The notes below the pieces were generated by a model. That model did not search any database. It was not told where the DNA came from and was given only the letters and a program-made list of their open reading frames with translations. Of a stretch of DNA of 64,000 nucleotides, positions 4,414-43,138 are shown piece after piece. Position numbers and translations under genes: made by a program. Positions within the stretch are counted from its first letter, which is position 1; each line of letters starts with the position of its first letter. Source of the stretch: Candidatus Micrarchaeota archaeon (GTDB lineage Archaea > Micrarchaeota > Micrarchaeia > Micrarchaeales > CABMGC01); assembly GCA_964419095.1 (NCBI GenBank), contig CAYQOG010000001.1:15759-79758 (forward strand). Direction: 5' to 3'.

Positions 4414-6324
4414 ATGCCTGCCGAGAACCAAGAGTATGACGCATCAAAAATCGTCGTACTGGAAGGTGCCCAAGGCATAAGAAAAAGACCCGCAATGTAC
4501 ATCGGTTCCACAGGAACTGCAGGAGTTCTACACCTGCTTTATGAGGTTGTAGACAACTCTGTTGACGAAACTCTGGCTGGTTACGCGAAGAACATAACGA
4601 TTCGCCTTTTCATGGACAACGAGACCAACGTCGCTGAAGTCAGCGACGACGGGAGAGGCATACCTGTAGACATAATGCCGAAATACAACAAAGGCGCGCT
4701 CGAAGTTATAATGACCACGCTCCATAAGGGTGGAAAGTTCGGAGGCGACGCGTACAAGGTATCTGGAGGCCTACACGGCGTGGGGCTCACTGTTGTCAAT
4801 GCGCTTTCGGAATACACGGAAGTGACAGTGAAGAAGAACGGCCATCTCTACAGGCAGACATTCAGCAGGGGCACTCCAACCTCAGAACTCGCCCAGATAG
4901 GCGACACTACAGAAAGAGGCACAACAATAAAGTTTAAGCCAGACAGAGAGATCTTCCCATCAACCACATTTGACTCTGCAATACTGAAGGACAGGCTTCT
5001 ATACACAAGCTTCCTGAACCCCGAAGTCACGATCACGCTTACTGACGAAAGGTTTGAGCCTCACGAGACACAGACATACAATTCCAAGGAAGGCATAATC
5101 GACTTCATCAGATTCATAAACAACGAGAAGACAACACTCACCAACGTCATACGCTCAAAGCAGCAGAAGGACGACGTCGTCGTGGAATACGCGCTGCAGT
5201 ACAACAACACATATGACGAAAGGCTTGAGTCATTCGTCAACAACATAAGGACCCCGGAAGGAGGTACGCACGTCATAGGCTTTCACAGTGGCCTTACAAG
5301 GGCAATACTTAACTACATTGCCAAGAACAAGGCCATAAAAACTGAAATAAAAGTAACCGGAGAGGACATACGCGAAGGCCTCTCTGCAGTTCTCAGCGTT
5401 TTGATGCAGAATCCCGAGTTTGAAGGCCAGACAAAGGAGAAGCTAGGGAATACGAAGGTCAAAAACATACTCGAGGTAGACGTGTATGACAACATGTCCA
5501 GGTACCTTGAAGAACATCCGGCAGACGCAAAGGCAATAGTCGAAAAGGCTATAGTGGCTGCAACGGCCAGGGAAAGCTCAAGAAAGGCAAGGGAGCTGGC
5601 AAGGAAGAAGAGCATATTCGACAGCTCTGTTCTCCCGGGCAAGCTCTCAGACTGCATTTTCGACGATCCTGCAAAAACAGAAATCTTCCTGGTAGAGGGA
5701 GAAAGTGCAGGAGGTTCAAGCAAGAGCGGCAGGGACAAGAACACGCAAGCCATACTCCCACTCAGGGGAAAGATACTCAACGTCGAAAAGGCAAATTACG
5801 AGAAGATATTCGACAACAATGAGATAAAGGCCATGATCACTGCTTTCGGGGCAGGGATAAACGAAACTTTCAATATCGAGGGGCTCAGGTACCACAAGAT
5901 AATTCTGATGAGCGACGCAGACGTGGACGGAAGCCACATCAGGACGCTGCTGCTCACATTCTTCTACAGGTTCATGAAAAAGATAATCGAAGCCGGTAAT
6001 GTCTACATAGCGCAGCCTCCCCTTTACAAGATAACCAAAGGAAAGGAAGTTTCATACTGCTACAGCGAGGAAGAGCTGCTGGTCAAAAGAAAGGAACTGG
6101 GAGACAAGATCGACCTCCAGAGGTATAAGGGACTTGGAGAGATGAACCCGGACCAGCTCTGGGAAACCACAATGAATCCAGAAACCAGGCTTCTCAAGAG
6201 GGTGACAATAGCCGATGCCATGAGGACGGACCAGCTCTTCACCATACTCATGGGAGTCGATGTGCCAAAGAGAAGGAAATTCCTGCAGGAGCATGCCGAA
6301 GAGGTCAGAGTACTTGACATATAA
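4414..6324 (+). CDS. gyrB: DNA gyrase subunit B
   Basis: GHKL ATPase motifs (LHHLVYEVVDNSVDE-like, GGLHGVG), Toprim (LVEGESAGGS, PLRGKILNVEKA, DADVDGSHI) and the C-terminal tail YKGLGEMNP. Confidence 0.97.
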   Translation: MPAENQEYDASKIVVLEGAQGIRKRPAMYIGSTGTAGVLHLLYEVVDNSVDETLAGYAKNITIRLFMDNETNVAEVSDDGRGIPVDIMPKYNKGALEVIMTTLHKGGKFGGDAYKVSGGLHGVGLTVVNALSEYTEVTVKKNGHLYRQTFSRGTPTSELAQIGDTTERGTTIKFKPDREIFPSTTFDSAILKDRLLYTSFLNPEVTITLTDERFEPHETQTYNSKEGIIDFIRFINNEKTTLTNVIRSKQQKDDVVVEYALQYNNTYDERLESFVNNIRTPEGGTHVIGFHSGLTRAILNYIAKNKAIKTEIKVTGEDIREGLSAVLSVLMQNPEFEGQTKEKLGNTKVKNILEVDVYDNMSRYLEEHPADAKAIVEKAIVAATARESSRKARELARKKSIFDSSVLPGKLSDCIFDDPAKTEIFLVEGESAGGSSKSGRDKNTQAILPLRGKILNVEKANYEKIFDNNEIKAMITAFGAGINETFNIEGLRYHKIILMSDADVDGSHIRTLLLTFFYRFMKKIIEAGNVYIAQPPLYKITKGKEVSYCYSEEELLVKRKELGDKIDLQRYKGLGEMNPDQLWETTMNPETRLLKRVTIADAMRTDQLFTILMGVDVPKRRKFLQEHAEEVRVLDI

Positions 6325-6332
6325 GTGATAAA

Positions 6333-8792
6333 TTGAGAGAGCCAAAGAACGCGCCATTGGATGACGAGCTGCAAACCAGCTACATCGACTACGCAATGAG
6401 CGTGATAATAGGCAGGGCAATACCCGACGCCAGGGACGGCCTCAAGCCCGTGCAGAGAAGGGTTCTCTACACCATGTACGGATTAAAGAACTTCCACAAC
6501 CTGCCTACGAAAAAGAGTGCAAGGATAGTCGGAGACTGCATAGGAAAACTGCACCCCCACGGAGACATAGCGGTGTACGATGCGCTGGTCAGGATGGCGC
6601 AGGATTTCTCCATGCACCACAGGCTTGTCGAGGGTCAGGGCAACATGGGAAGCGTTGACGGCGATCCTCCCGCTGCAATGCGTTACACTGAAGTGAGGCT
6701 TACCAAGATTGCAGAGGAGATGCTGAACGACCTGGACAAGGAGACCGTTGCCTTCACGCCGAATTTCGACAACACTGAAACCGAGCCGGTTACTCTTCCG
6801 TCAAGGATACCAAACCTTCTGGTAAACGGGTCATCAGGAATAGCAGTAGGGGTTGCAACAAGCATACCTCCTCACAACCTCAACGAAGTGTGCGAAGCTA
6901 TCGTCCACGTCCTCGACCACAAAGAGTCTACCATAGAGGACGTGCTTGGAATAATAAAGGGGCCCGATTTCCCTACTGGAGGAATAGCCATAATGTCCCA
7001 GAACGCATACGCCGGTTACAGGCACGGCCGCGGCCAGACAACCATAAGGGCGAAGGCTGAGATAGACGAAAAGAAGAGGAAGATAGTCATAAACGAGATA
7101 CCATACAACGTAAACAAGGCAATCCTGATACAGACTATAGCTGAATTTGTACGAGAGAAAAGGATAACCGGAATAAGGGATCTGAGAGACGAAAGCGACA
7201 AGAGCGGCCTGCGAATAACCATAGACCTGAAAGATGACGCAAATCCTGAACAGGTGCTCAACATGCTTTACAAGCACACGCAGCTGGAGGTGACATTCCC
7301 GATAATCAACCTTGCTGTAGTCGGAAAGAGGCTGATGAGCCTCAACATCCTCAGCATGATTACCACATTCATCGACTACAGAAGGGAAATCGTACTCAAG
7401 AGAAGCCAGTATGAATTGAGAGTTGCAGCGGACAGGCTCCACATAGTCGAAGGCCTCATCCTTGCAATAGACAGAATAGACGAAATAATAAAGGACATAA
7501 AGGAAAGCGGAGAACTTGCACAGGCAAGAGCCACCCTAATGAAAAGTTACGCGTTGTCAGAGAAGCAGGCAAACGCTATACTTGACATGAAGCTCAGCAG
7601 GCTTACGCATCTTGAGAACACGTCGCTGAACAATGAGAAGAAAGAGCTCATAGCTAGCGTCTCCCATTACAAGGCGATAACAGAGCAGCCGGAGAAAGTT
7701 GACCAGATAATAAAAGAGGAGACCCATGATGTGAAGAAGCAATTCGGCAAGCCAAGGAAAACAGAAATACTCAACATAGACCAGCCGCTCGACATAACTG
7801 ATGAGGACATGATAAGCAACGAGCGTGTCACGGTCATAATGACCAACAAAGGGTATGTCAAGAGGCAGAACATAACCACTTTCAAGGAGCAGGGAAGGGG
7901 CGGCAGGGGAGTCATAGCGATAAACCTGACTGAAGGAGACTACGTCAAGGAGATTCTTACATGCAACAACAAGGACTTCCTCCTCTGCATATCCAATACG
8001 GGCAGGGCCTACTGGATCAAGGCGTACAACATCCCTGAAAGCAGCAGGTACGGGGCAGGAAAAGCAATAGTCAACCTGCTAAACCTCACGAGTGACGAGA
8101 AGATAGTGGTCATGCTCGACATGAAGAACACAGAGAAATCAAACATAGCATTCCTTACCGCGAAAGGAGTGGTCAAGAAGACCGACGCTGTGCTCTTCTC
8201 CAGGCCAAGGTCGAATGGCGTCAGGGCAATACACCTGCGCGAAGGAGACGAGATATCAGACGTCATAATCTATTCTAACTCCAAGTACCTCACAATACTC
8301 ACCAAAGCCGGCAAGTCGATAAAGTTCGAGGAAGAGGAGCTGAGGCAGATAGGAAGGACGGCATCAGGAGTAAGGGGAATAAGGCTGCATGAAAAGGACT
8401 TCGCGAAGAATATAATATCCGCAAACGATTCAGGAAGCATATTGACTGTTACGGAGAAAGGCTACGGAAAGATCACTGATATATCGCTTTACAGGACCCA
8501 GGGCAGAGGAGGAAGCGGTGTTATAAACATAAAGACGAACGAGAAGACAGGGCCTGTGTCAAAGGCACTGTTCATAAGCGGAGAGCAGCACCTGATGCTG
8601 ATTAATTCGAGCGGAATAAGCATAACCATACCGATAGACTCGATAAGGATAACAGGAAGAGCCGCAAGCGGAGTAAGGCTCATGAAACTTGAAGATGGGG
8701 CAAAGGTAGTCGACGCTAGGGTCATAAGGGGCGATGACGCAATGCCTCTGCCGCCTGCTGTTCCTAAACAGCAACCTCCGCCGCAGGCCTGA
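6333..8792 (+). CDS. gyrA: DNA gyrase subunit A
   Basis: GLKPVQRRVLY, HPHGD, and the active-site Tyr in AAMRYTE. C-terminal beta-pinwheel repeats (GRGGRGV, GRGGSGV). TTG start 9 nt after the gyrB stop. Confidence 0.97.
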   Translation: MREPKNAPLDDELQTSYIDYAMSVIIGRAIPDARDGLKPVQRRVLYTMYGLKNFHNLPTKKSARIVGDCIGKLHPHGDIAVYDALVRMAQDFSMHHRLVEGQGNMGSVDGDPPAAMRYTEVRLTKIAEEMLNDLDKETVAFTPNFDNTETEPVTLPSRIPNLLVNGSSGIAVGVATSIPPHNLNEVCEAIVHVLDHKESTIEDVLGIIKGPDFPTGGIAIMSQNAYAGYRHGRGQTTIRAKAEIDEKKRKIVINEIPYNVNKAILIQTIAEFVREKRITGIRDLRDESDKSGLRITIDLKDDANPEQVLNMLYKHTQLEVTFPIINLAVVGKRLMSLNILSMITTFIDYRREIVLKRSQYELRVAADRLHIVEGLILAIDRIDEIIKDIKESGELAQARATLMKSYALSEKQANAILDMKLSRLTHLENTSLNNEKKELIASVSHYKAITEQPEKVDQIIKEETHDVKKQFGKPRKTEILNIDQPLDITDEDMISNERVTVIMTNKGYVKRQNITTFKEQGRGGRGVIAINLTEGDYVKEILTCNNKDFLLCISNTGRAYWIKAYNIPESSRYGAGKAIVNLLNLTSDEKIVVMLDMKNTEKSNIAFLTAKGVVKKTDAVLFSRPRSNGVRAIHLREGDEISDVIIYSNSKYLTILTKAGKSIKFEEEELRQIGRTASGVRGIRLHEKDFAKNIISANDSGSILTVTEKGYGKITDISLYRTQGRGGSGVINIKTNEKTGPVSKALFISGEQHLMLINSSGISITIPIDSIRITGRAASGVRLMKLEDGAKVVDARVIRGDDAMPLPPAVPKQQPPPQA

Positions 8793-11971: not shown

Positions 11972-13591
11972 CTATCCTAAAACATATACTGTTCCCGTGG
12001 CATTGTGTATGGTGTTGCCGTTAGTGTAGTTCATCCTCAAACCAAAGACATAGCCGTAAGGGAGGCTCTGGGCAAGCTGCCCTTCGTTGTAGCATTGCGT
12101 AGTGATGTTCACTATCCCGAGTCCCGGCAGGGTCTTGTTGAGCAGCGTGTATTTAGGGACGCCGTTCAGCACGCATCCGATAGAGCCCAACCTTACTGAA
12201 GTAATGTTCGCGTTGAGCAGCCTGAAAGAGAGGGTGCCGTTATTGTAGCTCGCATTCTGGCATCCGAAGCCGGTTATTCCGCAGGAAGGCTTGACCCCGT
12301 TCACGAATTGGACGGACTGCCCTGAAAGGTTCGAGACCTTTAGAATGTCTATGCTTAGCGGCACCTGCTGCAATGCCTTCGAGGTGTTCACAACTGCCAG
12401 AGCGGTAGCATTGAGCCCTCCAATCGCCGCCGTTGTCCTTATCAGCGAGGTAGGCCCTACGATCTGGTTTGTCGAGAAGATATAGCTGCTGCAGTAGCTT
12501 ATGCCGTTCGCCGTATCTATGATCCCGTAGCAGGAGCCGCTCTCCGCGCTGTTTGTAGCGACTCCGGAATAGACGAGCGACTGGTTACCTATCAATACCG
12601 TGTAACCAGTGCTGAGGCTGTTCCCTTCAACAAACGAGTCGTTGGCTATTATCACGCCTATGCTGAGCGCAGGAACGTTGACCTTGGGTATTGTCTGAGG
12701 CGCAAATTCCGAATAGTTGTTCTGTATGTACCCAAGGCAGGCTGTGTTTCCCTGAGCAGTAACGGTCTTGATCCATCCGTTCGAGTACCAGCTGCACAAC
12801 GATTCGTTGTCCTTTAGATGCACCAGAGTTACCTGGCTTCCTCCCACGGTAGAGTTCTGCGTCGTGAGGTTCCTTCCCTGAGCTCCAACTGCCATTATGT
12901 CAGGGAGAACGTATCCGCGCAGCCATATCGAGTAAACCACATTCCCGTTTGCATATTTGGCATGGGCAACGCTCATGTTTTCCACGTATCCGCCAACCAC
13001 ATCGATAAGCGGGGTAAGGAAGTCATTAAGGCCCGGCATTCCGGTTATGTTGAACTGCGTTATGTTGTATCCCGCGCTGAGGTATGAATAATAAAGGAAT
13101 CCTACTGTATTCAGGTTCACGTTTCCATGGGAAACCGCACTGCCTGGAGGAAGGAGCGAGTACGCCTGCGGTTTCTGCGGATTATTTATCGTTAGCTCCA
13201 GCGAGGCAGCTGCATTATTCCTATCCCCTATGTTATAGCGTTTTGCCGGATCCACTATGATGCTGATATTATATCGGCCGCCTTGCGTCGGTGTGTAGTT
13301 TATGGGTATTGTTGCAGTCTTGTCAGGAGGAACAGTGACCCCGTAGACGTTTATCACATTTCCGTTTATCAGCTCCTCAACGCCTATGTCGCTTATCATG
13401 CCGCTTCCAGTATTGTTTATGTAGGCGTCAAGCACTAATCTCTGATAAGGATAAACATTCTGATAGGAACTCGAATTATGCGCGAAAGCCGTGACCACGC
13501 TGATCTGGCCTTCCGAATAGAAGCGTATGTAGAGGGCAACTGCCAACACCACGAGAAACATGCCTATCCATATGAAAACTTCTCTTTTCAT
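11972..13591 (-). CDS. N-terminally anchored extracellular protein with a CARDB-like domain, rich in N-glycosylation sequons
   Basis: N-terminal TM (FIWIGMFLVVLAVALYI). CARDB-like segment NTGSG...VTVPPDKTATIPINYTPTQGGRYNISIIVDP. Many N-x-S/T sites. Confidence 0.6.
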   Translation of the reverse strand: MKREVFIWIGMFLVVLAVALYIRFYSEGQISVVTAFAHNSSSYQNVYPYQRLVLDAYINNTGSGMISDIGVEELINGNVINVYGVTVPPDKTATIPINYTPTQGGRYNISIIVDPAKRYNIGDRNNAAASLELTINNPQKPQAYSLLPPGSAVSHGNVNLNTVGFLYYSYLSAGYNITQFNITGMPGLNDFLTPLIDVVGGYVENMSVAHAKYANGNVVYSIWLRGYVLPDIMAVGAQGRNLTTQNSTVGGSQVTLVHLKDNESLCSWYSNGWIKTVTAQGNTACLGYIQNNYSEFAPQTIPKVNVPALSIGVIIANDSFVEGNSLSTGYTVLIGNQSLVYSGVATNSAESGSCYGIIDTANGISYCSSYIFSTNQIVGPTSLIRTTAAIGGLNATALAVVNTSKALQQVPLSIDILKVSNLSGQSVQFVNGVKPSCGITGFGCQNASYNNGTLSFRLLNANITSVRLGSIGCVLNGVPKYTLLNKTLPGLGIVNITTQCYNEGQLAQSLPYGYVFGLRMNYTNGNTIHNATGTVYVLG

Positions 13592-30610: not shown

Positions 30611-30778
30611 AAATCAGAAATATATGGCTCATCACGATGATAAATGGACAAGAAAGGATATAAATGCGACAGCGGAACCGAGAACAGCCGCTAACCGTAG
30701 CAAAGGGATACGTATCTGCACGTAGTGCCACATAACGTTTTAAATACTGATTGCGGCAAGATAACTCTGTTGGTTCCT

Positions 30779-32167
30779 ATGATAGATATAACAAAGGATA
30801 ATTTTGAAGCAGAGGTACTCAAGTCTGGAATACCTGTTGTCGTAGATGCATGGGCCGTTTGGTGTGGCCCCTGCGTAACTCCAGATACTGTACTCTTAGG
30901 AGACAACAAACCGATTTCTCAAGTCCAAGCAAACGATTATGTTTTCACGCAAACAGGGCATAATCAAGTTAAGGATAGTTTCAGCAGGCAATACGATGGT
31001 GATATTCTTACTGTCAAAGCCTGTGGGATGCTCCCGTTCCAAATTACGCCAGAACATCCTGTATTGATATCTACTTCAGAATCAACGGACAGGATTATAG
31101 GTATGTCAAGCACTTACTGGAAGGAAGCAGGCAATCTCATAGCCAAAGAGAAAGACGACGACGGCGATTATCTGGTTATACCAAAACTGAAGGGCAATAC
31201 AGATACAAAATTAATTAGCCTGGGAAAGTACATAGCAGACAGAAATATCAGTATGGCTTCCCGCAAGAATGTGCCGCTGGAATTCCCCCTAAATGAAGAT
31301 ACGGCATGGCTCCTGGGTCTCTATGTCGCAGAAGGAAACGCAAGCGATAATGCAGTCGTGTTCAATCTGGGAGCAAAAGAGGTAAAACTGCAAAATGAGG
31401 TAATCAGAATAGGCAAGGATCTTGGATATTCCCCCTGCATAAGCCATTCATCCCAAAGCGCAGTCAAAGTCTCTATCAAGTCAAGGTTGCTTACAAGGGC
31501 GTTCCCAGAATGGTGCGGACATCTGGCCCCAAACAAGAAGATACCCGACTTCATCCTGATGCATAAAAACGATGCAATTCCAAAGAAATTCCTTGAAGGC
31601 TATCTGATCGGTGACGGGAACAAGAGGGATGGCATGCAATTTGCAAGATCTGTATCGAAGCTATTGATGATACAACTGCAACTGCTTTATACGCGATTTG
31701 GCAAATTCGCAGTCTTACAACTATCTCAAAAAGGCGGAGTGTCAAAAATACTAGGCAGGACTGTCCATACGCATGACATGTATACTATGTGCGTAAGGGA
31801 AAACGGCGCAACACAGGCAAGGCAGACTCCTGAATACATATACGTCCCTATAAGGGAAATAACGCGAAAAGCTTACTCTGGTGTAGTATGCAACATAGAA
31901 ACTGCTGACAACACCTACCTGATAAACAATGCAGTTGTACACAACTGCAGGATCTTCTCCCCGATATTCGAAGGCCTGGAGAAGGACTTCTCAAAGAAGG
32001 TAAAGTTCGCGAAGCTCAACGTGGACGAGAATCCCGACATCTCAGGAGAGTACAACATAATGAGCATACCCACCACGCTTCTTTTCGAGAAAGGCAACGT
32101 AAAGGCCATGTCCGTGGGCGCGGTGCCCAAGGAGGACTTCAAGAAGTGGCTGGAGAAAAACCTTTAA
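30779..32167 (+). CDS. trx: Thioredoxin precursor interrupted by an intein (spliced product predicted at 104 aa)
   Basis: N-extein MIDITKDNFEAEVLKSGIPVVVDAWAVWCGP and C-extein CRIFSPIFEGLEKDF...NVDENPDISGEYNIMSIPTTLLFEKG join to a canonical WCGPC thioredoxin. Confidence 0.9.
   Translation: MIDITKDNFEAEVLKSGIPVVVDAWAVWCGPCVTPDTVLLGDNKPISQVQANDYVFTQTGHNQVKDSFSRQYDGDILTVKACGMLPFQITPEHPVLISTSESTDRIIGMSSTYWKEAGNLIAKEKDDDGDYLVIPKLKGNTDTKLISLGKYIADRNISMASRKNVPLEFPLNEDTAWLLGLYVAEGNASDNAVVFNLGAKEVKLQNEVIRIGKDLGYSPCISHSSQSAVKVSIKSRLLTRAFPEWCGHLAPNKKIPDFILMHKNDAIPKKFLEGYLIGDGNKRDGMQFARSVSKLLMIQLQLLYTRFGKFAVLQLSQKGGVSKILGRTVHTHDMYTMCVRENGATQARQTPEYIYVPIREITRKAYSGVVCNIETADNTYLINNAVVHNCRIFSPIFEGLEKDFSKKVKFAKLNVDENPDISGEYNIMSIPTTLLFEKGNVKAMSVGAVPKEDFKKWLEKNL
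30872..31945 (+). mobile_element. Intein (358 aa) with LAGLIDADG homing-endonuclease domain
   Basis: Cys1 (CVTPDTVLL), block B ITPEHPVL, LAGLIDADG motifs LLGLYVAEGN and FLEGYLIGDGN, block F/G VVCNIETADNTYLINNAVVHN, then Cys+1. Confidence 0.9.
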
Positions 32168-34634: not shown

Positions 34635-35807
34635 TCAGTCGGCAAGGCCTCTCAGGAAGAATCTCTTTATGACCACGCTCGGAAGGTCCATGTCCCCGTA
34701 TCTTTCCAGGAAACCCTCAATGCCAAGCTTCTTCGAGACGCTTACTATTCTACCCAAATTCTCATGGCTGAGTGACGAATAGAATTTATTGGCCATGGAA
34801 TGCAATCGCATCTCAAGCCCATACTTCTTCATGAATGCGGTCTCATAATCCGCAAGGCTCGCGCCGTTGCTGAGATGCTTCCCTATCGATTCTGCCGCAA
34901 TCAAGGCCGCATTGCTTCCGAATATTATCCCCCCGCCTGTAGTTGCCTTGACCTGGCCTGCCGCATCGCCGACCAGCAGCACGCGCCTCTTTTCATCTAC
35001 AATCCTCTCCCGCCTTGCCATCGGTATGATGCTGGCGCCTCCTGTGATGGGGCGATGGCCATCAACCATGTCGGCCACCGCCTTGGTCTGCACGAATCTC
35101 TCGAATGCGAGCTTGCTGTTCCTGAAACCCGTGTCCACTCCTATGCCCACTTCGAGTATGTCGCGCGTATTGGGGCACATCCAGCCGAATAAGCCCGGAG
35201 TGAACCTGTTATCGAAGAAAAGGTCGACGATTTCGGGGTTCCCTGCCGAGACATTGTACTCTGCCTTGTAGGTCAGCGAATACCTTGGAATCTGGCCCAT
35301 CGAGAAGTGCCTTGCCACTGTGGAAACGGCGCCATCCGCACCTATTATTATGCCATTCCTGCTTATCGAATCGAGCTCCGCAGCCGATACCCGCTTTCTG
35401 GTTTCAACTGCCGCTCCTGCCGAAGCCGCATCATCCTTGCATATCCCATTGAGCCTCTTCCTGTCCAGCACCACTGCTACAGGATCCTTGGTCCTTATGC
35501 TAAGAGTCTTCCCTCCCGCATGTATGTTCGCGCCTTTCAGCGTGTTTGTCAGTGCGGTCCTGTAATCCACTCCAAGGCTACGCAGTCCTTTCACGGAGAG
35601 TATCCCCGATGCATGTATCGGGTGGCCAATGACCGCCTTCTGCTCGTAGACCCTGGTGGAAATGCCCTTTTCAGCTAGCGCTCTTGCTGCAATCATGCCC
35701 GCAGTTCCGCCGCCGATGACCGATACCTTCTCCTTCAAACAAGCACCGTAGTCTGCTTTATATAGCTTATCTAACAAAGATAAAATCGAATACTTATCAG
35801 CTGGCAA
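34635..35807 (-). CDS. Geranylgeranyl reductase-family FAD-dependent oxidoreductase
   Basis: FAD fold VSVIGGGTAGMIAARALAEKG, LLVGDAAGQVKATTGGGI, ~390 aa. Start codon uncertain (TTG). Confidence 0.8.
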   Translation of the reverse strand: MPADKYSILSLLDKLYKADYGACLKEKVSVIGGGTAGMIAARALAEKGISTRVYEQKAVIGHPIHASGILSVKGLRSLGVDYRTALTNTLKGANIHAGGKTLSIRTKDPVAVVLDRKRLNGICKDDAASAGAAVETRKRVSAAELDSISRNGIIIGADGAVSTVARHFSMGQIPRYSLTYKAEYNVSAGNPEIVDLFFDNRFTPGLFGWMCPNTRDILEVGIGVDTGFRNSKLAFERFVQTKAVADMVDGHRPITGGASIIPMARRERIVDEKRRVLLVGDAAGQVKATTGGGIIFGSNAALIAAESIGKHLSNGASLADYETAFMKKYGLEMRLHSMANKFYSSLSHENLGRIVSVSKKLGIEGFLERYGDMDLPSVVIKRFFLRGLAD

Positions 35808-35839: not shown

Positions 35840-38800
35840 ATGTCGCTATTATCGGCAATACTAATCGGCTTCCTATCAATCATAGTGCCTGGGTTTTTCG
35901 TCTCCCTGGCATTGCTAAGGAGGACCAAATTCGGCCTTTTTGAGATAACGGTCATAGGCTTCATACTGGGCATGATCCTTGTCCCGATGGCCGTGTGGCT
36001 CGAGTCATACCTGATAAACGTCTCCCCGGTCTTCTCGTTCTCGGCAGGACTCTACAACGCAAACGTAGTGGCCATAACAATAATCGGGATAATATTCTGC
36101 TTCAGGCAGGGCGCATTCAAGGATCTTGGCGTCAGCCTCTCCGCGGGAATGCGGAACCGCTCGCCAGCGCAGGAGAGCAAGGCAATAGAGACTGATTACA
36201 GGAAAAGGCTCTCCGAGCTCCGCGTCACAATCTCAAGGCTCAAGGTGGACATGAAGCTGCTGAAGCAGCACGAGCAGGAGGAGCTTGACCTCGCAAGGCG
36301 CCATGAGGAGGAGATGCAGGCGCTCAAGAGCGCAGGGCCAGAGGAGAAGAACGCGGTGATGGCGCAGCACAGTAACCAGGAAAGAAGGCTCTTCGAGGAG
36401 CACGAGCGCGAGGAGAGGATGCTGCTCCGCACTGCAACCACCCCATCCGCGCCGATTACACAGAATGCATTCAAGCTCAACTGGATATGGCTCTTCGTCC
36501 TCGGGCTCATGGCAGCGACATTCGTTACGAGGTTCGCAAGCATAACCGCAGCGCCCAGGTATTTTGAATTCGACCCGTATTTCGACATGGTCAGCACCCA
36601 ATACATAATCACATACGGATACCAGCTCTACCTTGACACATCCGCATGGCCCAGCGCGGTCAACGGAACGAACCACAGGGCAGAACCGCTGATACCTTAC
36701 ATCGAGGCATATTGGTATGACATATCAGCGCCGCAGCACCAGACCACGCTTGCGGGACCTATCGCGCCTTCCCTTGGAAGCCCTGTACCACTTTCTACAG
36801 GAACCGCCTCGTCACAGGCTCCGCCAAACACGAATCTTCTCAGCCTGGTCAGCAGCTATTATCCTCCTATCGCAGCGGCACTTCTTGTATTCGTCGTATT
36901 TATCCTTCTCTACCATCTTTACGGAGACTTCCCCGCAATAATAGGCGCGGTGCTGGCAGCTGCAATGCCGACTCTGATAAGCACCTTCATAGCAGGAGAG
37001 CAGCTCCTCGAACCTTTCGGAATACTGCTCCTCTTCTTCTTCCTCGCCACGTATCTGATGGCGACAGAGAATCCCAATGAAAAGAGATACGCGATACTCG
37101 CAGGCCTCGCCTTTGCATCAAACTTCCTCGGCGCGCAATACTACACTGTGCCTGCAGGAGTCCTCGCAGTATACATACTTGCACAGGGCCTATTCAACGT
37201 GCTCAAGCAGAGGCCGATGCGCGACTTCTACATAATGAACATAATAGTCATCGCCGTATTCACAATCATATTCGCACTCTACATCCCATACGCGGCAACG
37301 CTCCAGAACAGAATACCGAGCTACTTCGGCGTGCCGACAATAGTGAGCTTCCCAGTGGCCGCGCTCCTGATAGTCGCGGCGTTCGAGTACATACCGTTGC
37401 TCGCAAAGGAGTACAAGATCGTTGACATCAAGACGGACCTGAAAACCTATCTTATCTGGCTGGCGCTCCTCGCGGTCATACTGACAGGACTCATATTCAC
37501 TACCCCGCTCGGCAAGCCTGTCGACGCATATCTCACGCTGAGCAAGCATTTCACGACTCCTTCCTCGCCGCTCTTCATGACCGTCCAGGAGTACGCCCCC
37601 ACCGGCCTCACCTTCGACTTCGGCGCGAATGGCTTCGGGCTGATTGCACAGAGCATAGCGGGATTCCCGCTGATACTCTGGATTGTGCTGATACTTTTCG
37701 TGGCCATAGAGCTTTACGCCATATTCATGAAGAACTCGCAGTCAGGGATCATGGTCCTCGCATTCGTGATACCTCTCGCATTTGCAGGAATGTCCGAGGT
37801 AAAGTACCTGCCCCATTTCGGCGTAGCGTACATAATAGCCATAGGCGTCATCTTCGGAGAGCTCTTCATATACCTCAGGGATCGTGGGGCGTCAAACACG
37901 CAGCTCTGGCTCCTATATGGCTTCGGAAGCCTCATAGTGATGGCCGAATTCGTCTCGTATATCGGACTTGGAGTGCTTCCCGCAGCGCTAAACCAGAACT
38001 GCAATGCAATAGCCACGGCGGGAAACAATGTAGGCGCCGACCTCTACTGCAACACCCTGCCTACGTACTGGTTGGATGCAACGGCATGGATGCGCGCAAA
38101 CGTCGGCCCTTACGGCCCTAGGATACTCTCATGGTGGGACTATGGCGACTGGATCAACTGGTTCGGCAACAGCAACGCCGTGCTCAGGGGAGACAACGCC
38201 GTGCCGCAGGCCGATTACAACACCGCAGCCAATTTCGTGCTGGGAAACGCCAGCGGATACGGCCCCGCCAGGCTCGCATCGTTCATGGACATTTCACAGG
38301 CAAAATACGTCCTTTTCGACGACCAGCTGGTTCCGAAGTGGGGCGCGCTGGACTTCCTCGCATGCATAGATACCAATCAAACCACCCAGGCATACGCAAC
38401 GGCGCAGGGCAAGCTCTACAACCAGAGCTTCATACTCGGCACATCTCCTTGCGAGGTAGCGCACGACCCTGCCGAGCTTCTGGTTCCCTCAAACGTCACC
38501 AGCGTCAATGAGTTCTGCTCGTTCTCCAATTCGACTACGAGCAACGCAACTGCGCTTCAGAGCATAGTGATAATCGGACAGGCATCCGCGAACCTCACGT
38601 ACTGCCTGCCCACCGCATTCCTGCAGACCGGGAACCCCACAAGGCTGCTCTACCAGAACGGCACCAAGTCAAATGCAGTGGTAACCACGAACCTCTATGA
38701 GGGAAGCTTCAGGACATCCCCAGGCCAGTCTTTCTACACGTTCGTGCTCATCTACCTGCCGAACGGGCCCAACGGTACCATAACTGACGCGCCGTCGCAG

Positions 38801-39007
38801 TTCTACAACTCCAACTACTACCGCGGCTACTTCCTCGGCAAGCTGCCGGGATTCACGCTCGCGTACCCGGGCAACTTCACCGGAGTCAATTACGTAAACT
38901 CGACAAGCAAGATAATGATCTTCTCGCTCAACAACTTCACAGGAAGCCTGCCCAAGGTGCTCCCGAAGCCCAAGTACGTCAACAACAGCTATGTGATGCC
39001 CGGCTGA
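35840..39007 (+). CDS. aglB: Archaeal oligosaccharyltransferase AglB (STT3 family) with an extra N-terminal module
   Basis: EL1 motif FEFDPYFDM, multi-TM core, WWDYGDWI (WWDYG) motif, and a large sequon-rich C-terminal domain. Residues 1-210 add 3 TMs plus a charged coiled coil. Confidence 0.9.
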   Translation: MSLLSAILIGFLSIIVPGFFVSLALLRRTKFGLFEITVIGFILGMILVPMAVWLESYLINVSPVFSFSAGLYNANVVAITIIGIIFCFRQGAFKDLGVSLSAGMRNRSPAQESKAIETDYRKRLSELRVTISRLKVDMKLLKQHEQEELDLARRHEEEMQALKSAGPEEKNAVMAQHSNQERRLFEEHEREERMLLRTATTPSAPITQNAFKLNWIWLFVLGLMAATFVTRFASITAAPRYFEFDPYFDMVSTQYIITYGYQLYLDTSAWPSAVNGTNHRAEPLIPYIEAYWYDISAPQHQTTLAGPIAPSLGSPVPLSTGTASSQAPPNTNLLSLVSSYYPPIAAALLVFVVFILLYHLYGDFPAIIGAVLAAAMPTLISTFIAGEQLLEPFGILLLFFFLATYLMATENPNEKRYAILAGLAFASNFLGAQYYTVPAGVLAVYILAQGLFNVLKQRPMRDFYIMNIIVIAVFTIIFALYIPYAATLQNRIPSYFGVPTIVSFPVAALLIVAAFEYIPLLAKEYKIVDIKTDLKTYLIWLALLAVILTGLIFTTPLGKPVDAYLTLSKHFTTPSSPLFMTVQEYAPTGLTFDFGANGFGLIAQSIAGFPLILWIVLILFVAIELYAIFMKNSQSGIMVLAFVIPLAFAGMSEVKYLPHFGVAYIIAIGVIFGELFIYLRDRGASNTQLWLLYGFGSLIVMAEFVSYIGLGVLPAALNQNCNAIATAGNNVGADLYCNTLPTYWLDATAWMRANVGPYGPRILSWWDYGDWINWFGNSNAVLRGDNAVPQADYNTAANFVLGNASGYGPARLASFMDISQAKYVLFDDQLVPKWGALDFLACIDTNQTTQAYATAQGKLYNQSFILGTSPCEVAHDPAELLVPSNVTSVNEFCSFSNSTTSNATALQSIVIIGQASANLTYCLPTAFLQTGNPTRLLYQNGTKSNAVVTTNLYEGSFRTSPGQSFYTFVLIYLPNGPNGTITDAPSQFYNSNYYRGYFLGKLPGFTLAYPGNFTGVNYVNSTSKIMIFSLNNFTGSLPKVLPKPKYVNNSYVMPG

Positions 39008-41841: not shown

Positions 41842-42477
41842 TTAGTAGGGGTTGTCAAGATCTCCTGCATCTGCAGGCTTTTTATACCTCTTTACGAAAT
41901 TCGAGACCGTTGCTCTTGTATGGTTGTCGTATGCCTTAAGGTAGCCCCTCAATTTGCCTGGCTTTGTCACCTTGAGCAGTTCCGCGTAATCCTGTATCGA
42001 CATTCTGCTCTTATAATAAAAGAGGTCAATCAACGTCTTCTCCGGATCCGAAACAGGCACAACTACGTCTCCATATTTCACATCCTCAAAGCCAAAATAG
42101 TATTTCCTCGGAATGTGATGCAGCACCAATCTGCTATCGCCTCTGTAAATTCCGATAAAGGATTTCTTTACGGGTCTCGTTGTCATAACCTCCATTTTTA
42201 CCTGATCGTCTATCAGGTCCCGTATCATCAATGCCGCCAATCCTCCATAATAAAACGGGGTAAAGGCAAAACCCGCAAACTCATCTCTTTTGTGAAGGCT
42301 GAACACGCCCTTCATAACTTTATATACCCTGCGCTGCTTTGCCATTCTTGAGAGCGTCACTCTAATGATTCTGTCGTCCGTGCTCTTATTTTTTTCTGAC
42401 AGCAGAACTCTGACGTCATTTAGAGTGAATGTCTTGAAATCCCTGAACGCATCCGTTATCCTATCCCCTAACTTCAT
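41842..42477 (-). CDS. AbiEi-like (COG5340-type) putative antitoxin / transcriptional regulator
   Basis: N-terminal wHTH (FTLNDVRVLL...RVTLSRMAKQRRVYKVMKGVF) and a C-terminal segment VPVSDPEKTLIDLFYY typical of AbiEi. Overlaps the upstream NTase gene by 17 nt. Confidence 0.6.
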   Translation of the reverse strand: MKLGDRITDAFRDFKTFTLNDVRVLLSEKNKSTDDRIIRVTLSRMAKQRRVYKVMKGVFSLHKRDEFAGFAFTPFYYGGLAALMIRDLIDDQVKMEVMTTRPVKKSFIGIYRGDSRLVLHHIPRKYYFGFEDVKYGDVVVPVSDPEKTLIDLFYYKSRMSIQDYAELLKVTKPGKLRGYLKAYDNHTRATVSNFVKRYKKPADAGDLDNPY

Positions 42478-43138
42478 CCAACCACCTTTCCAATATGCCT
42501 ATCATGTCTTTGAAACTTGGCGCAGCGCCGCTTAGGATCAGCTGCCTAAGGTCCTTTTCATTCTTTGGAGGTCTGTCCTTTATTTTTGTAAGGAAAGCGT
42601 CAATTTTCCTGCATATCTCTTTTGAAGGTTTGCCAATCTTGTCTTTGAGGACCATTATGTCATACAGGTCGTGTATCTCTTCAGCTCCATTAACATATTT
42701 GCTGAGATAAGTATCTATCTTCTCAACAAGCAGTTCTCCTGGACCCAGGGCAAGTATCATCTTCCTTGATCCATCTACGCGCATGTATTCCACAGCATGG
42801 CCATCAGCCTTCCCGAATGTTATATCGAATTTCCCCGTAGTGCCATTGCCCCTGAATATTATGTGCAGTGTATTGGTTTTGTTGTTATACTTTTCCTCTC
42901 TTACCGGATAGTCGTTTTCTACAAGTAATTCGTGAATCTCCTTCTGGAGCCTGCTTTCTTCCGAGGCATCGAGATTACTATAGAAATCCAAATCTCGCGA
43001 AAACCTGTTTCCGCCATAGCAACGCCAGACTGCTGTTCCTCCATGCATTACAAAGGCATCGTAATTCTTCACCAGAAGGTCAAGCGCGTCGTCTTCAAGC
43101 ACGGCTCTATTCCTCTGAACCGCATCTAATATCTCCAT
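42461..43138 (-). CDS. AbiEii/AbiGii-family nucleotidyltransferase (type IV toxin-like, DUF1814)
   Basis: HGGTAVWRCYGGNRFSRDLDFY matches the GGTAL..YG..RFSxDLDF NTase signature. ~225 aa. Confidence 0.8.
   Translation of the reverse strand: MEILDAVQRNRAVLEDDALDLLVKNYDAFVMHGGTAVWRCYGGNRFSRDLDFYSNLDASEESRLQKEIHELLVENDYPVREEKYNNKTNTLHIIFRGNGTTGKFDITFGKADGHAVEYMRVDGSRKMILALGPGELLVEKIDTYLSKYVNGAEEIHDLYDIMVLKDKIGKPSKEICRKIDAFLTKIKDRPPKNEKDLRQLILSGAAPSFKDMIGILERWLDEVRG

Follow-up and report, generated by a model that had tools for sequence, protein, structure and literature searches.

The stretch of DNA considered here, hereafter the window, comprises 64,000 nucleotides (nt) of a Candidatus Micrarchaeota archaeon (assembly GCA_964419095.1, contig CAYQOG010000001.1, positions 15,759 to 79,758) and contains a thioredoxin gene (trx) that is split by an intein within the codons of its CGPC active site. 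The insert is a canonical class 1 intein with a LAGLIDADG homing endonuclease, as judged from its catalytic residues, its fold and its homology, and it is very probably a genuine element, competent to splice out of the thioredoxin active site. According to the list of open reading frames (ORFs) and to the reading of the DNA, positions 30779-32167 (+) encode a precursor of 462 amino acids (aa) followed by a stop codon, in which the insert at 30872-31945 (+), 1074 nt or 358 aa, is in frame and corresponds to precursor residues 32-389. The left junction reads TGG TGT GGC CCC / TGC GTA ACT (TGC at 30872) and the right one GTA CAC AAC / TGC AGG (AAC ending at 31945), the pattern of insertion in the precursor being WCGP^C...HN^C (carets mark the junctions). 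An earlier reading of this DNA, made by a model from the letters and a list of ORFs (the sequence-only reading), had delimited the same insert, and the DNA bears out its coordinates and its length to the base; the motifs then quoted (ITPEHP, LLGLYVAEGN, FLEGYLIGDGN and NNAVVHN^C) were all located, the product spliced in silico has the expected 104 aa, with WCGPC restored and the strand IMSIPTTLLFEKG present, and the Cys+1 of the intein is, as had been claimed, the second Cys of CGPC. The features of the gene are the following.

30738-30746 (+): putative archaeal TATA-box-like element TTTTAAATA, ~35 nt 5' of the ATG, from reading of the sequence
30779-32167 (+): whole precursor ORF, 462 aa plus stop
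30779-30871 (+): N-extein, thioredoxin residues 1-31, ending in VDAWAVWCGP, with the nucleophilic Cys29 at position -3 of the intein
30842-30871 (+): left half of the inferred homing site, a predicted target that, joined with 31946-31975, reads GTAGATGCATGGGCCGTTTGGTGTGGCCCC^TGCAGGATCTTCTCCCCGATATTCGAAGGC
30872-31945 (+): class 1 intein with nested LAGLIDADG homing endonuclease, 358 aa, Cys1 at 30872-30874
31046-31057 (+): block B T-P-E-H (TxxH), within ITPEHP at 31040-31057, with T90 and H93 (precursor numbering)
31226-31813 (+): homing-endonuclease domain, with approximate bounds from the secondary structure of the model and the alignment with PI-PkoII
31310-31339 (+): LAGLIDADG motif 1, LLGLYVAEGN, with catalytic Glu185
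31589-31621 (+): LAGLIDADG motif 2, FLEGYLIGDGN, with catalytic Asp279
31883-31945 (+): blocks F and G, VVCNIETADNTYLINNAVVHN, ending in NNAVVHN, with penultimate His388 and terminal Asn389
31946-32164 (+): C-extein, 73 aa, with Cys+1 at 31946-31948 (the resolving Cys of CGPC) and the cis-Pro loop MSIPT
32165-32167 (+): stop codon

The two flanks of the insert form one contiguous thioredoxin, as the sequence-only reading had claimed. The spliced product of 104 aa scores 120 bits against TIGR01068, the NCBIfam thioredoxin model (cut-off 96.8), in a single stretch over profile positions 2-100 of 101; its residues 3-102 cover profile positions 4-103 of 103 in Pfam PF00085, and solved thioredoxins align end to end over its residues 2-104, among them 4ba7 (E 1.6e-35) and E. 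coli Trx1 (with its residues 5-107). The WCGPC active site is regained on splicing and the cis-Pro loop is present. In the AlphaFold2 model of the whole precursor, the N-extein is arranged as strand-helix-strand and the C-extein superimposes on solved thioredoxins with a Foldseek root mean square deviation of ~1 Å. Syntenic loci were fetched from species-representative genomes by means of the product of the neighbouring hisS gene (HisRS), whose closest relatives all belong to Candidatus Micrarchaeota (DPANN archaea). In 11 Micrarchaeota loci, an uninterrupted trx with WCGPC intact lies directly upstream of hisS, and the encoded proteins are 58-72% identical to the spliced product over their full length; the gene order histone-trx-hisS is conserved, and the locus carries the only trx seen in the 11 relatives. 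The search for intein-free alleles in relatives, which had been suggested with the initial claim, was in this way successful, since all 11 genomes hold an uninterrupted equivalent of the insertion site, and these loci are, by prediction, empty homing sites. Within the 64-kb window, neither a second thioredoxin nor a second copy of the thioredoxin intein was found; nor was a thioredoxin reductase, the FAD-binding ORF at 34635-35807 matching PF01494 and not a thioredoxin-reductase family.

As regards the insert, the residues of class 1 splicing are all in place. In an alignment of 37 family members C1, T90 and H93 of block B, H388, N389 and C390 are invariant; of the two endonuclease residues, Asp279 is invariant and Glu185 at least 90% conserved. 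NCBIfam models of proteins that contain inteins match the insert (RpoA'' with E 6.5e-12, Tes with E 1.2e-9, and also IF-2), and PI-PkoII (2cw7) is the sole sequence match in the PDB (phmmer, intein residues 140-293, E 7.7e-11). The AlphaFold2 model, with a predicted local distance difference test (pLDDT) of 90.8 and a predicted template modelling score (pTM) of 0.82, points to a HINT fold for the intein: the top 16 Foldseek matches in the PDB are all endonuclease-bearing inteins, TliVMA first (E 8.5e-21), followed by PhoVMA, PI-SceI, PI-PkoII and PI-PfuI. The free LAGLIDADG enzymes I-Tsp061I and I-DmoI come next and match the middle domain (Foldseek, target TM score 0.54-0.68), in which the duplicated alpha-beta-beta-alpha-beta-beta-alpha order is seen. 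As in the window intein, the HINT domain of TliVMA and PhoVMA (7qsu, 7qss, 7qst), PI-PkoII (2cw7), PI-SceI and PI-PfuI is split by a LAGLIDADG endonuclease, with Foldseek E-values of 8.5e-21 to 6.1e-11 and a structure-based identity of 11-17%; unlike it, they reside in V-ATPase or DNA polymerase, and the window intein, with 358 aa, is more compact than PI-SceI or PI-PkoII. Blocks, modelled fold and homology to intein-containing models are hence in agreement with the intein claim of the sequence-only reading, the Intein_splicing profile itself being weak (see below).

The same arrangement exists outside the window. A whole-database search recovered 7 additional clusters (at 90% identity) that share this architecture and junction, of which three are ~60% identical, carry WCGP^C and are of the Micrarchaeota type, and four are ~40% identical and carry WCKP^C, one of them labelled Nitrososphaerales by NCBI. 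The clusters stem from JGI, ENA, NCBI and Logan data. A protein identical to the precursor (P0001) is also found in public data, on an NCBI contig and on a Logan contig of run SRR10333328. Public labels for these proteins are "thioredoxin domain-containing protein", "thioredoxin" and "intein/homing endonuclease", the last being one generic JGI label. A full-text literature search returned no natural thioredoxin or glutaredoxin intein, although an earlier tabulation in specialist surveys or supplements may exist. The sequence-only reading knew of no thioredoxin intein allele; the allele is not unique to this genome, at least 8 clusters at 90% identity in the public data, that of the window included, holding it. 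The element itself is a textbook class 1 LAGLIDADG intein in the features tested, and its host and site are new. The inteins of the Micrarchaeota (WCGP^C) and of the Nitrososphaerales (WCKP^C) thioredoxins are 38-42% identical, no closer to each other than either is to the inteins of NuoB described below. A single origin of the thioredoxin allele is not supported, as the two groups are not sisters in a star-like neighbour-joining tree; the identical site in the two lineages may represent one ancient allele or two independent invasions. One of the Micrarchaeota-type proteins, P0002 (HUC38662.1, locus L002), is labelled by NCBI with a bacterial name, "Candidatus Acidoferrum sp."; its contig, however, has archaeal genes, for a histone-fold protein, ribosomal protein L37ae, a member of the SBDS family, RNase PH subunits of the exosome and the alpha subunit of the proteasome. 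The contig shares the histone-trx-hisS synteny with the window and is probably mis-binned.

The base composition of the insert looks foreign to the host genome. Its GC content is 43.8%, compared with a window mean of 50.7%, and ranks within the bottom 1% when all windows of 1074 bp are considered; at third codon positions (GC3), the insert has 44.7%, whereas the exteins reach 66.3%, hisS 64.6% and gyrA 61.4%. The AT-richness that the sequence-only reading had suggested is, therefore, real and stronger than it had supposed, and a comparable drop in GC3 is seen in most of the other alleles examined. In the tree of spliced exteins, each of the 4 intein-bearing alleles of the Micrarchaeota type is nested beside intein-free ones: the window extein is 73% identical to that of the intein-free locus L004 and 58% to that of the intein-bearing P0002. 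At the same time, the inteins of the window and of P0002 are 61% identical, whereas the adjacent HisRS proteins are 44% identical. The phylogeny of the intein disagrees with that of the host gene. Because of the foreign GC3, the scattered alleles, the gap between intein and HisRS identity and the conserved endonuclease residues, the evidence favours dissemination by homing rather than an ancient, vertically inherited element that was precisely lost many times. When homing, the free intein would cut trx alleles that lack it, at the sequence coding for WCGP^C, and would then be copied in by repair, which would explain both the patchy distribution and the foreign base composition. IMG/VR contigs carry family members in other hosts, and none in thioredoxin. 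Five such contigs, classed as viral (L041-L044 and L058), have family members at 32-41% identity, in two cases within hosts with HExxH-type metallopeptidase-like motifs and in two within methyltransferase-like proteins; viral contigs of this kind could act as vectors between lineages.

That the endonuclease is active, or was so recently, is probable on these grounds. The alternative that best withstands the data is an intein that still splices and whose endonuclease is now dead, a vertically inherited passenger whose patchiness would reflect repeated precise loss. Decayed endonucleases are known in many inteins (PMC8966425), and the star-like tree of inteins between alleles leaves room for some lineages to be old. 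This alternative is nonetheless unlikely, given that both acidic LAGLIDADG residues and the full-length domain are conserved in the 8 thioredoxin alleles and across the 37 family members, that a GC3 ~20 points below that of the host genes argues for a recent arrival, that the inteins of the window and of P0002 are more alike than the flanking HisRS proteins, and that at least 11 precise losses of the intein are less parsimonious than its gain.

Several observations weigh against a splicing-competent intein. The Pfam profile PF14890 (Intein_splicing) is weak for the window protein, which scores 12.8 bits (E 0.11) where the cut-off is 35.8, and LAGLIDADG_3 reaches 21.5 bits against a cut-off of 22.5; across the 8 thioredoxin-intein homologues, PF14890 matches all at E up to 5 (best 5.8e-7) and LAGLIDADG_3 also matches all (best E 3.7e-12). 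The canonical Asp of block F is apparently replaced, in our own block alignment, by an Asn (N372) that is invariant in the family. The -1 residue is a Pro, which in some engineered inteins disfavours cleavage at the N-terminal junction; all 8 thioredoxin alleles nevertheless retain it, and so do 9 of the 146 family junctions of the census described below. Lastly, the search for thioredoxins spans 64 kb of the genome, and a second, uninterrupted trx may lie elsewhere. The sub-threshold Pfam scores, the atypical Pro-1 and block-F Asn and the room for a second thioredoxin would suit an insert that is splicing-dead or decaying, the interrupted trx being a pseudogene and another thioredoxin doing the work. 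Such a state is very improbable, for the precursor ORF is uninterrupted over 1386 nt, the splicing residues are all invariant among homologues 38-61% identical, the exteins keep every thioredoxin motif and are 58-72% identical to functional-looking orthologues, and the conserved histone-trx-hisS position holds the only trx seen in the 11 relatives. As for a chimera of assembly or binning that joined the intein of a foreign gene into trx, the source is indeed a metagenome-assembled genome and the related P0002 is taxonomically mislabelled in NCBI, but the possibility can practically be dismissed, because both junctions preserve the reading frame and coincide with codon boundaries, two independent assemblies, the Logan contig of SRR10333328 and the NCBI contig, yielded the identical protein, and the 7 further clusters from JGI, ENA, NCBI and Logan have the same junctions.

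The thioredoxin intein is one member of a very large family of archaeal inteins (P0008-P0265) hosted by well over 100 different proteins: an exhaustive HMMER search with the intein alone returned 4794 clusters of 50% identity at E ≤1e-3, and 254 at E ≤1e-30. Its nearest relatives outside thioredoxin are 40-46% identical across the full 358 aa. They reside in NuoB of Nitrososphaerales (ETAC^C), in a TIGR00375 PHP protein (CPK^C), in TFIIB (CPK^C), in PriL, in numerous small proteins with zinc ribbons, in a GNAT protein and in radical-SAM proteins (CQSRCLT^C); in P0011 and P0046, the family inteins sit in the CX3CX2^C motif of radical-SAM proteins. Most of the closest relatives directly precede the final Cys of a motif of cysteines. 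The inteins of Nitrososphaerales NuoB and those of the PHP, TFIIB, radical-SAM and small redoxin proteins resemble that of the window in their C1...VVHN^C ends and are likewise unannotated as inteins; they differ in their host proteins and their DNA targets. The NuoB alleles alone make up dozens of Nitrososphaerales clusters (P0015-P0120; locus L036, 1000-2655), with the intein between the adjacent cysteines of ETAC^C, which we take to be ligands of the N2 Fe-S cluster. No paper dealing with both inteins and NuoB, and nothing relevant on inteins of Micrarchaeota or Thaumarchaeota, emerged from the full-text literature search. Four small redoxins of thioredoxin or glutaredoxin fold (P0101, P0115, P0162 and P0093) carry a family intein at the equivalent position, with the junctions CSH^C, CGH^C, CPH^C and CPY^C, which points to repeated invasion of redoxin active sites. 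Among the other members, the assembly GCA_030157145.1 holds both a NuoB (L036) and a TFIIB (L039) allele, two inteins interrupt P0127, each at a CxxC site, P0132 (3308 aa) has up to eight stretches that match the family intein, and the gene adjoining that of the PHP intein (L037, 3347-4364) encodes homing-endonuclease domains too.

A census of junctions was made on the best 150 of the family clusters, which gave 146 N-terminal junctions; these are cluster representatives and not independent events, and their statistics are indicative. Across the family, the +1 residue is Cys in 140 cases, Ser in 8 and Thr in 1. A Cys occupies position -3 in 46/146 junctions (32%), across 45 different contexts of 5 residues, and each of the other positions from -8 to -1 in 1-3%. 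This raw, 20-fold enrichment has to be tempered, since, among the other extein cysteines of the same proteins, taken as a control, 10.5% are accompanied by a Cys at -3 and 10.5% by one at +3, which leaves an excess of about three-fold. Of the junctions with Cys+1, 2/139 have a Cys at +4. The family is, with the indicative value just stated, enriched ~three-fold directly upstream of the second Cys in CxxC motifs and depleted ~seven-fold upstream of the first, and the asymmetry between -3 and +4 is a more telling number than the enrichment at -3. To our knowledge, this preference of an intein family for the second Cys has not been described. A common extended DNA target is not supported: nothing but the TGY codons of the cysteines is common to 8 spliced target sites, and the preference for CxxC is for this reason not explained by a common target of the endonuclease. 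Possible explanations are that the Cys at -3 is selected for as a switch responding to redox state or to metals, that a Cys at +4 is costly for the splicing chemistry, or that the second Cys is structurally accessible.

The invariant residues suggest that the precursor follows the standard class 1 splicing pathway. After translation, Cys1 would undergo an N-S acyl shift at the Pro31-Cys1 bond, aided by the Thr and His of block B; Cys+1, the future resolving Cys of CGPC, would attack the resulting thioester (trans-thioesterification); the terminal Asn would cyclize with the help of the penultimate His; and an S-N shift would join Pro31 to the Cys, yielding the 104-aa thioredoxin with WCGPC and the free intein. 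Until then, the precursor would presumably be inactive as a redoxin. The precursor itself retains a C29-G-P-C32 motif, in which Cys1 of the intein stands in for the resolving Cys, a point on which the sequence-only reading did not remark, and the Cys at -3 is kept, as C-G/K-P-C1, in all 8 thioredoxin alleles. A disulfide between Cys(-3) and Cys1 would block the first step, the N-S shift, until reduced.

Precedents for this geometry exist. A Cys(-3)/Cys1 "redox trap", engineered in the Ssp DnaE intein and native in the Pab MoaA intein, is documented in PMC3922620 and PMC10663303, according to which the trap disulfide blocks the first splicing step until reduction. For the Pab MoaA intein, the block of the first step by the Cys(-3)-Cys1 disulfide goes back to Callahan et al. 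2011 (as cited in PMC3922620 and PMC10663303). This intein resembles that of the window in being of class 1, in having a Cys1 that faces a Cys of the host at -3, and in interrupting a cysteine motif within a host of the oxidoreductase type; the two are likened by the geometry of the junction, and differ in that the window host is a thioredoxin, whose Cys at -3 is the nucleophile of CGPC and whose Cys+1 is its partner. The engineered Ssp DnaE trap shares the C-x-x-C1 geometry of the N-terminal junction, and with the Cys introduced at -3 cleavage occurred under reducing conditions only (PMC3922620). In contrast with the window case, which is natural and has Gly-Pro as the spacer, it is artificial and belongs to a mini-intein without endonuclease in another host. 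The M. tuberculosis SufB and Pab PolII inteins respond to redox state or stress, their splicing being rendered oxidation-sensitive by the catalytic cysteines, and the SufB host is likewise non-replicative (PMC5874633); their disulfides, unlike the one considered here, form between Cys1 and Cys+1 or within the intein, and host and intein lineage are different (PMC5874633).

On this basis, a redox gating of splicing in vivo can be put forward tentatively. The argument for gating is one of sequence geometry, and the Cys at -3 is there because the site is a thioredoxin active site, so that in the trx allele it needs no adaptive explanation. Every precursor interrupted before the second Cys of a CxxC motif keeps a Cys(-3)-x-x-Cys1. 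That the family as a whole has specialized on the second Cys of CxxC, be it in the active sites of redoxins, in zinc ribbons or in Fe-S motifs, the resulting Cys(-3)-x-x-Cys1 serving as a built-in redox or metal switch, is more doubtful still.

The remaining observations concern the start of the gene and the rest of the window. A start at GTG 30725, which would give a protein of 480 aa, was rejected. The start Met of all intein-free orthologues is equivalent to ATG 30779 or is an adjacent Met, and the TATA-like box lies within the upstream extension, for which reasons ATG 30779 is taken as the true start. The position of TTTTAAATA would fit a transcript with a short leader starting at ~30769, which also supports ATG 30779, its role as a promoter being predicted. 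A scan for sigma-70 promoters and terminators, which is inapplicable to archaea, gave counts not above those of shuffled controls. GyrB, GyrA, Lhr and the DP1 and DP2 subunits of PolD are of normal length with uninterrupted profile matches, and the statement of the sequence-only reading that these obvious candidates are free of inteins stands. GyrB (636 aa) and GyrA (819 aa) are encoded side by side, without interruption, at window positions 4414-8792, which fits the patchy occurrence of gyrase among archaea, the subject of PMC9348778. The only other stretch of the window as low in GC as the intein is 41842-43138 (-), with a minimum of 42.7% for the 1074 bp from 42139. It comprises an ORF for an AbiEii-type nucleotidyltransferase toxin at 42461-43138 (-) (PF08843, E 1.9e-13), beside an unannotated ORF of 211 aa, and is probably a small mobile toxin-antitoxin island. 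The ORFs at 35840-39007 (+, 1055 aa) and 11972-13591 (-, 539 aa) have no Pfam match at E ≤1e-5.

With thioredoxin, a small, non-replicative redox protein is added to the hosts of inteins, and one in which the intein splits a catalytic dyad of two residues, the mature active site being made by the splicing reaction itself. The preference for CxxC bears on how inteins choose and colonize new sites. It is still debated whether conditional splicing is a physiological regulator or an in vitro curiosity, and the thioredoxin case offers a system in which to test it, with a host of 104 aa, a simple activity assay and a natural triad of Cys(-3), Cys1 and Cys+1, for which C29S and the intein-free orthologues are ready controls. 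If splicing were indeed gated by redox, an oxidized, trapped thioredoxin precursor would be freed by the very thiol-reducing system to which its own product belongs, and the maturation of thioredoxin would act as a feed-forward sensor of the redox state of the cell.

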